From an uncultured Candidatus Saccharibacteria bacterium (GTDB taxonomy: Bacteria; Patescibacteriota; Minisyncoccia; Phycocordibacterales; UBA918), in contig CAYOAM010000002.1 of the NCBI GenBank assembly GCA_964402035.1, forward strand, positions 27,280 through 91,279: 64,000 nucleotides of DNA, given 5' to 3'. This document shows positions 43,138-43,321 of this stretch, one piece after another. Every line of letters begins with the position of its first letter. The stretch's first letter is position 1. Below the pieces are notes generated by a model. It saw nothing but the letters and a program-made list of their open reading frames with translations, had not been told where the DNA came from and did not search any database. The position numbers and the translations under genes are program-made.

Positions 43138-43321
43138 GGTAGAGCTACTATGAACTCTTTTGAAGAATCTAACGGAAGGGCAATTTTATTTGTGTGCTGC
43201 CTCATCGGCCTACACAAATAAAATGGTCCTGAGTTTAGTGGCCTAGCACGTATTTTTTCTAATAAAGAAAAAATACGTGCTAGGAACACGGGTTCTGAAA
43301 AGGAGCTCATGGTAGCTCTAG
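43138..43321. mobile_element. MITE-like 184-bp element with imperfect 25-bp terminal inverted repeats and two perfect internal hairpins
   Basis: 5' TIR GGTAGAGCTACTATGAACTCTTTTG versus the reverse complement of 3' TIR GAAAAGGAGCTCATGGTAGCTCTAG (22/25). Internal hairpins TTTTATTTGTGT...ACACAAATAAAA (43184-43223) and CCTAGCACGTATTTTTT-CTAATAAAG-AAAAAATACGTGCTAGG (43242-43284, 17-bp perfect). Confidence 0.5.

Follow-up and report, generated by a model that had tools for sequence, protein, structure and literature searches.

A branched palindrome in the rnhB-dnaE spacer of a Candidatus Saccharibacteria genome, its counterparts in relatives and its possible origin

How did a long, branched palindrome come to stand between two divergent genes of replication, and what might it do there? 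The question is raised by an element of 184 nt in the genome of an uncultured Candidatus Saccharibacteria bacterium, located in the 236-nt spacer between rnhB (RNase HII) and dnaE (DNA polymerase III alpha subunit) within a stretch of 64,000 nucleotides (GenBank assembly GCA_964402035.1, contig CAYOAM010000002.1, positions 27,280 to 91,279 of the forward strand), referred to here as the window. A first interpretation of the letters (the sequence-only reading) likened the element to miniature inverted-repeat transposable elements (MITEs), with a structured regulatory RNA as the alternative. The analysis described here favours another explanation, to which a probability of roughly 45% is assigned: the element would be a lineage-specific insertion of a nested palindrome, a member of a recurring class of long-stem palindromes with small paralogous families, and not a MITE of the cut-and-paste type. 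Feature coordinates are collected in Table 1.

Structure and sequence identity of the element

The inverted-repeat structure is real and far beyond chance. It consists of a closing helix and two internal hairpins, so that the overall fold is a Y shape or three-way junction. The arms of the closing helix are 28 nt long, 82% complementary and separated by 125 nt, and the inverted repeats and RNA folds together give 28 paired positions, or approximately 35 when bulges are included. The limits given at first (43138-43321) have been moved inwards to 43140-43320, since the terminal GG (43138-43139) and G (43321) are not complementary. Terminal repeats of the 25 bp originally described are present, although their complementarity is not 22/25 but about 19/23 Watson-Crick matches plus G-T pairs. 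The two internal hairpins also exist, but only hairpin 2 is perfect (19/19), hairpin 1 being 89% complementary, and the 17-bp stem with a 9-nt loop that had been described is the inner part of a 19-bp stem with a 5-nt loop. The 16-nt apex of hairpin 1 contains a small GCC/GGC stem of its own.

Folded as RNA, the plus strand reaches -96.8 kcal/mol (z -11.6) and the minus strand -78.8 kcal/mol (z -9.9), the value for a DNA fold being -52.4 kcal/mol (z -10.7); in each case, none of 200 shuffles was as good. In a sliding fold of the 64 kb, no other 200-nt stretch is as structured as the element, which lies 7.1 standard deviations below the GC-corrected mean; its GC content is 41%, compared to 47% for the window.

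The element belongs to no described family. It matches nothing in Rfam 15, either at gathering score or at an E-value of 10 over the region, and the best sub-threshold matches are generic hairpin fits to miRNA models that score 20 bits against cut-offs of 80-100. Across the whole window, no Rfam family reaches its gathering score, and searches with a second palindrome of the window (E39, see below), the gap between rnhB and rpmF, and the loci of six relatives returned only generic hairpin matches. ARAGORN found no tRNA or tmRNA in the element and no tRNA gene in the window. Open reading frames (ORFs) of 60, 63 and 28 aa in the element have no Pfam match, and a search of 5.8 billion proteins gave no homologue of the 60-aa ORF. 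Retron non-coding RNA, 6S RNA and Y RNA were considered and rejected, given that the window offers no reverse transcriptase gene, central bubble, Rfam match or rsr gene. In the literature, no extragenic palindromes comparable to REP, ERIC or Correia elements have been described for the reduced genomes of Patescibacteria.

In the available data, the element is also unique in sequence. It is 100% identical in two other assemblies of the same species (L001 and L002), and the multiple copies anticipated by the sequence-only reading did not appear, either within the window or in searches with the terminal 18-mer (TAGAGCTACYATGARCTC) in GTDB (one genome per species), JGI metagenomes and IMG/VR. The 18-mer is found in 8 stretches of GTDB genomes, 37 of JGI metagenomes and 4 of IMG/VR, each time as a single match of 18-31 nt from which the rest of the element is missing, and these were rejected as chance matches. 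The window's own locus was not returned, which places the source genome outside those collections. In IMG/VR, a pattern for hairpin 2 gave one chance match and a pattern for the E39 core none. Copies were also sought via spurious gene calls of the 60-aa ORF and none was found, a test of low power, as L001 likewise carries no such call.

The spacer and its shared promoter in related genomes

Orthologous rnhB neighbourhoods were compared in 11 relatives, labelled L003 to L063, with 63-71% RNase HII identity to the window. Compact rnhB-dnaE spacers occur in 5/11 of them, and spacers of 34 nt (L056), 38 nt (L060), 41 nt (L054) and 68 nt (L062) lack the element, which confirms the earlier expectation of empty sites in relatives. 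The window spacer without the element measures 52 nt. Based on these short spacers and this remainder, the element is apparently an addition to an ancestrally short promoter spacer of about 35-70 nt. Small palindromes are found at the same position in two of the compact spacers, namely TCCGCATGCGGA in L054 and CCGCCA..TGGTGG in L062.

Other relatives carry other insertions. A ydjM-like gene lies between rnhB and dnaE in L004, an extra 142-aa ORF is present in L061, and the spacers of L003 and L061 contain a different two-hairpin region. In L063 (RNase HII P0016), the gene of a 229-aa RAYT-like protein (71-760) is found directly upstream of rnhB, in the usual place of dnaE; this protein has the HUH motif NHVHIL and matches NCBIfam REP_Tyr_transpos with an E-value of 5e-12, below the curated cut-off. 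Thus, repeated turnover seems to have taken place in this spacer. As separate observations, a 9-bp perfect hairpin precedes the RAYT-like gene of L063 and a hairpin with 25-nt arms follows its rnhB (1395-1474), and the L003 spacer contains at about 2860-2880 (dnaE-sense) the sequence TTATCCACT, an 8/9 match to the DnaA box consensus TTATCCACA, a site that the window element does not have.

The addition has left the dnaE promoter intact. The -35 and -10 hexamers are untouched, the element ending 9 nt upstream of the former and 31 nt before the TATAAT box, which in turn ends 6 nt ahead of the ATG, and the prediction is thus a dnaE mRNA with no leader or almost none. On the other side, the rnhB ATG lies 9-10 nt from the start of the element. 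Both distances agree with those initially given (10 nt and about 30 nt). The rnhB start codon is backed by alignment of the N-terminus to relatives, and no Shine-Dalgarno sequence is present upstream of it. In every dnaE-linked spacer of the relatives, a TATAATG(A/C)C box lies 6-10 nt before the dnaE ATG, and on the rnhB strand of the compact spacers this shared box reads TATAAT (L054), TATTAT (L056) or CATTAT. This arrangement fits one bidirectional promoter with a shared -10 box, which is the sole conserved promoter signal in the spacer. It is, therefore, rnhB and not dnaE that the element separates from the shared -10 box, and the earlier proposal of a displaced regulatory region for two essential genes needs amending in two respects: the dnaE core promoter stands intact downstream, with only rnhB cut off from the shared box, and rnhB is not essential in model bacteria.

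Because the shared -10 box is the only conserved signal of the spacer, the most economical model is that rnhB is transcribed through the element, which would probably form part of its leader. Transcription would proceed from the CATTAT complement of the dnaE box (43359-43354), start near 43346 and run through the element, so that the rnhB mRNA would open with about 215 nt of leader in the Y-shaped fold. With its 28-35 bp, the closing helix is long enough for a typical substrate of RNase III, whose gene rnc lies 2.5 kb away. Cleavage might shorten the leader and expose the start region, which is A-rich and unstructured; if left intact, on the other hand, the structure may shield the 5' end of the rnhB mRNA. 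In either case, rnhB output would depend on how the element is processed.

A comparable structure exists at the same place in a sister clade. The spacers of L055, L059 and L058 measure approximately 135-196 nt, and each folds into a closing helix with two hairpins (z -9.5, -8.8 and -4.7, respectively) in the interval from the rnhB start to the dnaE -10 box, i.e., with the position and three-helix topology of the window element. An alignment of the three reveals conserved junction and loop motifs (TCTG, GCATGG, CGAAG and CGCTGG), and 17/52 pairs have changed on both sides, compared to 6.5 +/- 1.9 in shuffles and at most 3 in slid controls, a count based on three sequences. In the outer closing helix, hardly a position is the same in all three, yet pairing is maintained. 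These data are indicative of a Y element kept by compensatory changes, and the structured regulatory RNA of the sequence-only reading is a possible alternative. Furthermore, if the CATTAT complement of the dnaE -10 box is taken as the rnhB signal, transcription in the rnhB sense is predicted to begin 0-4 nt ahead of the closing helix in all three genomes, a geometry that would suit a 5'-terminal stabiliser. A hammerhead-like core (CUGA..GAAG) was considered for this element and rejected, as A6 and A9 are not kept and no Rfam ribozyme matches.

The main rival explanation starts from this resemblance: the window element would be a diverged orthologue of the relatives' Y element, an old, locus-specific and cis-regulatory rnhB leader (a 5' stabiliser or a switch controlled by RNase III) that was lost repeatedly in the compact lineages. 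Shape, position, compensatory changes and predicted start all speak for it, and total loss of similarity at 70% RNase HII identity is conceivable, given that L058 and L055 show no BLAST match between their Y elements even at 84%. However, the window element has no BLAST similarity to the relatives' element, and the four motifs are missing from the corresponding places. A covariance model of the three Y elements (R1, with rough E-values) does not recover it, since it scores 12-17 bits, on single hairpins only, whereas unrelated hairpins score 24-30. A 27-bit match of this model on E39 was rejected as homology, because reverse strands and plain hairpins reach 24-38 bits and there is no BLAST similarity. 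Moreover, L062 belongs to the clade of the Y carriers (79-83% RNase HII identity) and is nested within it, yet lacks the core of about 100 nt, its small hairpin aligning with the outer closing stem of L055, L058 and L059; compact spacers occur in 5/11 relatives; and in the window genome the predicted start is not at the base of the helix but about 25 nt ahead of it. Finally, the same architecture is found at the unrelated loci E21 and E39, and thus shape alone is no mark of this locus. Descent from the relatives' Y element is accordingly regarded as possible but doubtful.

Nested palindromes in the window and the weighing of explanations

Long-range inverted repeats, with arms of 19-24 nt enclosing 86-110 nt, occur at four other places in the window, and one further element brings the total to at least five (E16, E21, E39, E49 and E63 in Table 1). 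They occupy about one in ten intergenic regions of a segment that carries rpoBC, dnaG-rpoD, gyrB, dnaE and aminoacyl-tRNA synthetase genes, and four of the five closely follow the 3' end of a gene on the minus strand (uppP, rpoD, rnc and the gene of a 1075-aa ORF). Two paralogous pairs are recognised by BLAST: E21 and E39 share 78% identity along 126 nt (E 1e-23), and E16 and E49 72% along 108 nt (E 5e-16). No paralogue of E63 was seen. The identity resides in the inner stem and core (77% and 72%, respectively), while the outer stems of the pairs are only 11-38% identical, no closer than random, and are nevertheless complementary inside each copy. In E16 and E49, the inner repeat is TCAAAAAT..ATTTTTGA, and a mismatch marks the boundary between core and outer stem; between E21 and E39, neither of which matches Rfam, nine pairs show compensatory changes. 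When the outer stems are joined without their cores, they form perfect palindromes in E16, E39 and E49 (14/17 in E21), and these joined stems resemble the ordinary terminators of the genome, which are perfect hairpins of 16-29 bp, some of them loopless (e.g., 48615-48656). The pattern of the paralogous pairs is, for this reason, described as a palindrome nested in a palindrome. Most members of the class are near-perfect Watson-Crick palindromes, in which both strands fold nearly equally well.

The presence of paralogous families of long-stem palindromes in one genome indicates that palindromic DNA does spread in this lineage. The evidence is consistent with a class of elements that multiply within genomes, by spreading or by duplication, and whose pairing is then preserved. 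The count of inverted 10-mer seeds does not separate the window (12) from shuffles (7.6), the signal being in the long arms and the fold energies. Termini shared between the window element and E39 (GGTAG..AGCT..TTTTGAA) were proposed and discarded as not robust, with p 0.014 for the 5' arms, uncorrected for ten comparisons, and p 0.2 for the 3' arms. As an observation in its own right, the window contains unusually long perfect intergenic palindromes (48615-48656, 11234-11294, 46720-46772, 32972-33007, 33447-33481, 17930-17964 and 42070-42108), which have arms of 16-29 bp, are in some cases loopless and often have stems with A and T tracts; they resemble bidirectional terminators, e.g., between the convergent thrS and a 179-aa ORF.

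Within the preferred explanation, independent acquisition of the window element is favoured, at somewhat less than even odds, over descent from the relatives' Y element. This preference rests on the absence of the relatives' Y motifs from the window element, on the frequency of the class, which makes recurrence at one spacer not very improbable, on the Y shape of the unrelated E21 and E39, and on the several other kinds of insertion in the relatives' spacers. A more far-reaching version, speculative and rather unlikely as it stands, would see in the elements an undescribed class of self-propagating palindromes of Patescibacteria that lodge at dyad centres (terminator hairpins or promoter dyads) with no target duplication. 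The core would then be the repeated unit and the outer stem the host site, RAYT or IS200-like HUH enzymes might move the elements, pairing would be kept by selection or by hairpin-templated repair, and the window element would be one such palindrome, now placed in the rnhB leader.

A classical MITE, moved in trans by a DDE transposase from another part of the genome (e.g., of the IS630/Tc1 type with TA duplication), is improbable. The 28-nt terminal inverted repeats with TA at each end, the length of 184 bp, the non-coding character (the 60-aa ORF being without homologue), the empty sites in relatives and a composition richer in AT than the genome would all be expected of such an element, and to that extent the comparison to MITEs stands, the element being an inserted non-coding palindrome. 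However, no second copy is present in the window and no carrier of the terminal 18-mer in the scanned collections, while Pfam scans of the 47 ORFs in the 64 kb detected no transposase domain, as the sequence-only reading had also noted for the vicinity. The target-site duplications that it had anticipated reduce to an ambiguous TA: no direct repeat is common to the flanks ATGTATGTGG and GTTCCCGATT, and the terminal TA..TA is palindromic and part of the inverted repeat, hence no evidence of duplication. In addition, the two repeat families of the window conserve the core and not the termini, and their flanks are complementary where direct repeats would be expected, so that no target-site duplication exists in E21/E39 or E16/E49. 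MITEs and REPINs show conserved ends and a variable interior (PMC3337134), and a conserved core with a variable outer stem is the reverse of this pattern.

A role at the level of DNA has slightly less in its favour than the MITE. The element would form a cruciform or a protein-bound palindrome between the divergent promoters, absorbing negative supercoiling or acting as an expanded operator, as might be suggested by the near-equal folding of both strands in most class members, the DNA fold (z -10.7) and the small palindromes of L054 and L062; however, no binding protein or conserved sequence motif was identified, and most other members lie at gene 3' ends, where promoter supercoiling is irrelevant. 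Least probable of all is an independent plus-strand small RNA gene transcribed from a weak CATTAT box over the rnhB start codon (43126-43131, start at about 43138), for which the better folding of the plus strand and the position of the box 7 nt ahead of the first paired base can be adduced, but whose promoter is unreported by the promoter scan and lacks an acceptable -35 hexamer, with no terminator after the element, no Rfam match and no conserved upstream plus-strand promoter at the relatives' Y elements.

Several points weigh against the reading of the element as a lineage-specific insertion in an rnhB leader. The sister-clade Y element at the same place, with its compensatory evolution, could point to an old locus-specific function. 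The nearest relative has only 71% RNase HII identity, and exact boundaries of an empty site are not definable at this distance. There is no second copy in the 64-kb window, the terminal 18-mer finds no related sequence in GTDB species genomes, JGI metagenomes and IMG/VR (collections without the source genome), and no mobilising enzyme is encoded within the window. Lastly, the fold is more stable by 18 kcal/mol on the plus (dnaE-sense) than on the minus (rnhB-sense) strand, and G-U pairs number 6 on the former against 1 on the latter; this is unlike an RNA selected as an rnhB leader, although the counts are small. Across all elements, the G-U asymmetry is non-significant (26 vs 22, p 0.67; 14 vs 6 for the four spacer elements), which also weakens its use for the small RNA gene, and the uniformly negative GC skew leaves the plus-strand preference of the element unexplained.

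The window as a whole is a core chromosomal segment, in which Pfam recognises, among others, rpoB/rpoC, dnaG-rpoD, gyrB, pheST, hisS, thrS, smc, an RNase R-like gene and rnc. In the analysis, its assignment to Patescibacteria was based on the closest named relative of the RNase HII (P0005), which NCBI annotates as 'Patescibacteria group bacterium'. The GC skew of the window is negative throughout and the majority of genes lie on the minus strand, as would be expected of one replication arm whose leading strand is the minus strand. A non-coding gap of 476 nt (42035-42510) separates rnhB from rpmF-nusB-rnc; it contains no conserved protein, is strongly structured at 41961-42160 and has no Rfam match. 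An ORF at 41978-42487 is probably spurious, its similarity to relatives being confined to the part antisense to the rpmF start. Gene-free gaps of 470-830 nt are located at the same place in L003, L054, L055, L059 and L060, and the stretch may harbour a so far unrecognised gene for an RNA or an extended leader of rpmF. Next to it, a 316-aa ORF (40655-41605) fuses NusB with a NUDIX hydrolase domain, a fusion kept in all relatives examined, with the order rpmF, nusB-NUDIX, rnc. Two further regions are conspicuous by structure. The first (53801-54040) has a local GC content of 67-70%, compared to 47% for the genome, and very strong predicted structure on both strands, and is placed inside the overlapping ORFs 53503-54138 (minus) and 52909-53841 (plus), neither with a Pfam match. 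The second is the 741-nt intergenic region upstream of rpoB (31534-32274), with a strong GC-rich hairpin near 31827-31866; its fold in the sense of rpoB (minus strand) is more stable by 38 kcal/mol than that of the plus strand, and it has no Rfam match.

Table 1. Positions of the element, its parts, the promoter signals, the flanking genes and the other palindromic elements, numbered within the window.
Feature	Coordinates	Strand	Description
Whole element as first reported	43138..43321	none	True inverted-repeat limits 43140-43320
Closing helix, 5' arm	43140..43167		TAGAGCTACTATGAACTCTTTTGAAGAA; inverted-repeat search; fold extends pairing to ~43175
Closing helix, 3' arm	43293..43320		TTCTGAAAAGGAGCTCATGGTAGCTCTA; inverted-repeat search and fold
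Hairpin 1	43177-43195 / 43212-43230		A/T-rich 19-nt arms, 89% complementary, 16-nt gap
Hairpin 2	43242-43260 / 43266-43284		Perfect 19-bp stem CCTAGCACGTATTTTTTCT / AGAAAAAATACGTGCTAGG, 5-nt loop
dnaE promoter	43330..43358	plus	TTCCCA, 17-nt spacer, TATAAT at 43353-43358 (promoter scan)
Putative rnhB -10 (CATTAT)	43354..43359	minus	Overlaps dnaE -10 box; read from sequence
rnhB (RNase HII)	42511-43128	minus	Pfam scan
dnaE (DNA polymerase III alpha subunit)	43365-46556	plus	Pfam scan
rnc (RNase III)	39923-40615		2.5 kb from the element; Pfam scan
E16	16177-16300		Rod-like long imperfect hairpin, downstream of uppP (bacA)
E21	21442-21596		Y-shaped, just downstream of rpoD
E39	39763-39917		Y-shaped, just downstream of rnc
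E49	~49318-49436		Rod-like long imperfect hairpin, downstream of 1075-aa ORF
E63	63759-63908		20-nt arms, 80% complementary, 110 nt between; upstream of 388-aa ORF (62577-63743), close to the end of the window

Comparison with known systems

In well-studied bacteria, palindromes such as REP, ERIC and Correia elements shape transcription, mRNA stability and genome plasticity. The more interesting result of the present analysis is, in this respect, the class as a whole, i.e., nested palindromes, conserved in the core and free in the outer stem, in a genome of Patescibacteria, together with the recurrence of Y-shaped structures in the shared promoter of two replication genes. If the elements are mobile, they would point to a mechanism of insertion at hairpin centres, and if they are functional RNAs, they would be shape-only elements maintained by compensatory change; either outcome would provide a handle on gene regulation in organisms that are not yet culturable alone.

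Correia (NEMIS) elements of Neisseria are 100-160 bp long, with inverted ends of about 26 bp and TA termini, lie near promoters and start codons, are co-transcribed with their neighbours, form a hairpin that is cut by RNase III and vary in presence between related genomes. The window element resembles them in size, inverted ends, terminal TA, proximity to promoter and start codon, and variable presence. Correia elements, however, exist in hundreds of copies with conserved terminal repeats, a duplicated TA and a simple hairpin, whereas the window element is single in the available data, is Y-shaped and has termini common to nothing else. ERIC (IRU) elements are 127-bp imperfect palindromes of enterobacteria, found in transcribed intergenic regions, variably present at the same locus and without a known transposase. 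A long imperfect palindrome that is present or absent at one locus among relatives is common to both cases, but ERIC copies share their sequence and are rod-like, while the window element is unique in sequence and branched.

REP elements and REPINs with their RAYT enzymes share with the present class the lack of a target-site duplication, a frequent location at gene ends and a co-option as terminators, and a RAYT-like gene stands beside rnhB in L063; tblastn with the L063 protein found no RAYT gene in the 64-kb window. The differences are that terminal REPs are conserved, where here the core is conserved and the outer stem variable, and that REPs are 20-40 nt long and highly repeated, where the arms of the window element are unshared in the window. 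The spacers of REPIN copies differ in sequence but retain their hairpin (PMC3337134). Bidirectional promoters with symmetrical -10 elements, a concept presented in a preprint (bioRxiv 10.1101/2020.01.31.928960) and also in PMC12825309, resemble the 34-41-nt spacers of the relatives, whose conserved TATAATG / CATTATA box would drive both genes. The match concerns the ancestral context and not the element, which splits this arrangement on the rnhB side.

The last comparison concerns the leader role that is predicted here for the element. Leaders processed by RNase III, such as the leader of the E. coli rnc operon (rncO) and the sites of phage T7, contain a helix of at least two turns that is recognised by its shape rather than its sequence. 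The window element has a long closing helix and rnc in the same gene neighbourhood; it differs in that 476 nt separate rnhB from rpmF-nusB-rnc and in that both its transcription and its cleavage would follow from the model set out above. Recognition by shape would, moreover, allow the sequence to drift as long as pairing is kept, as has occurred in the Y element of the relatives.

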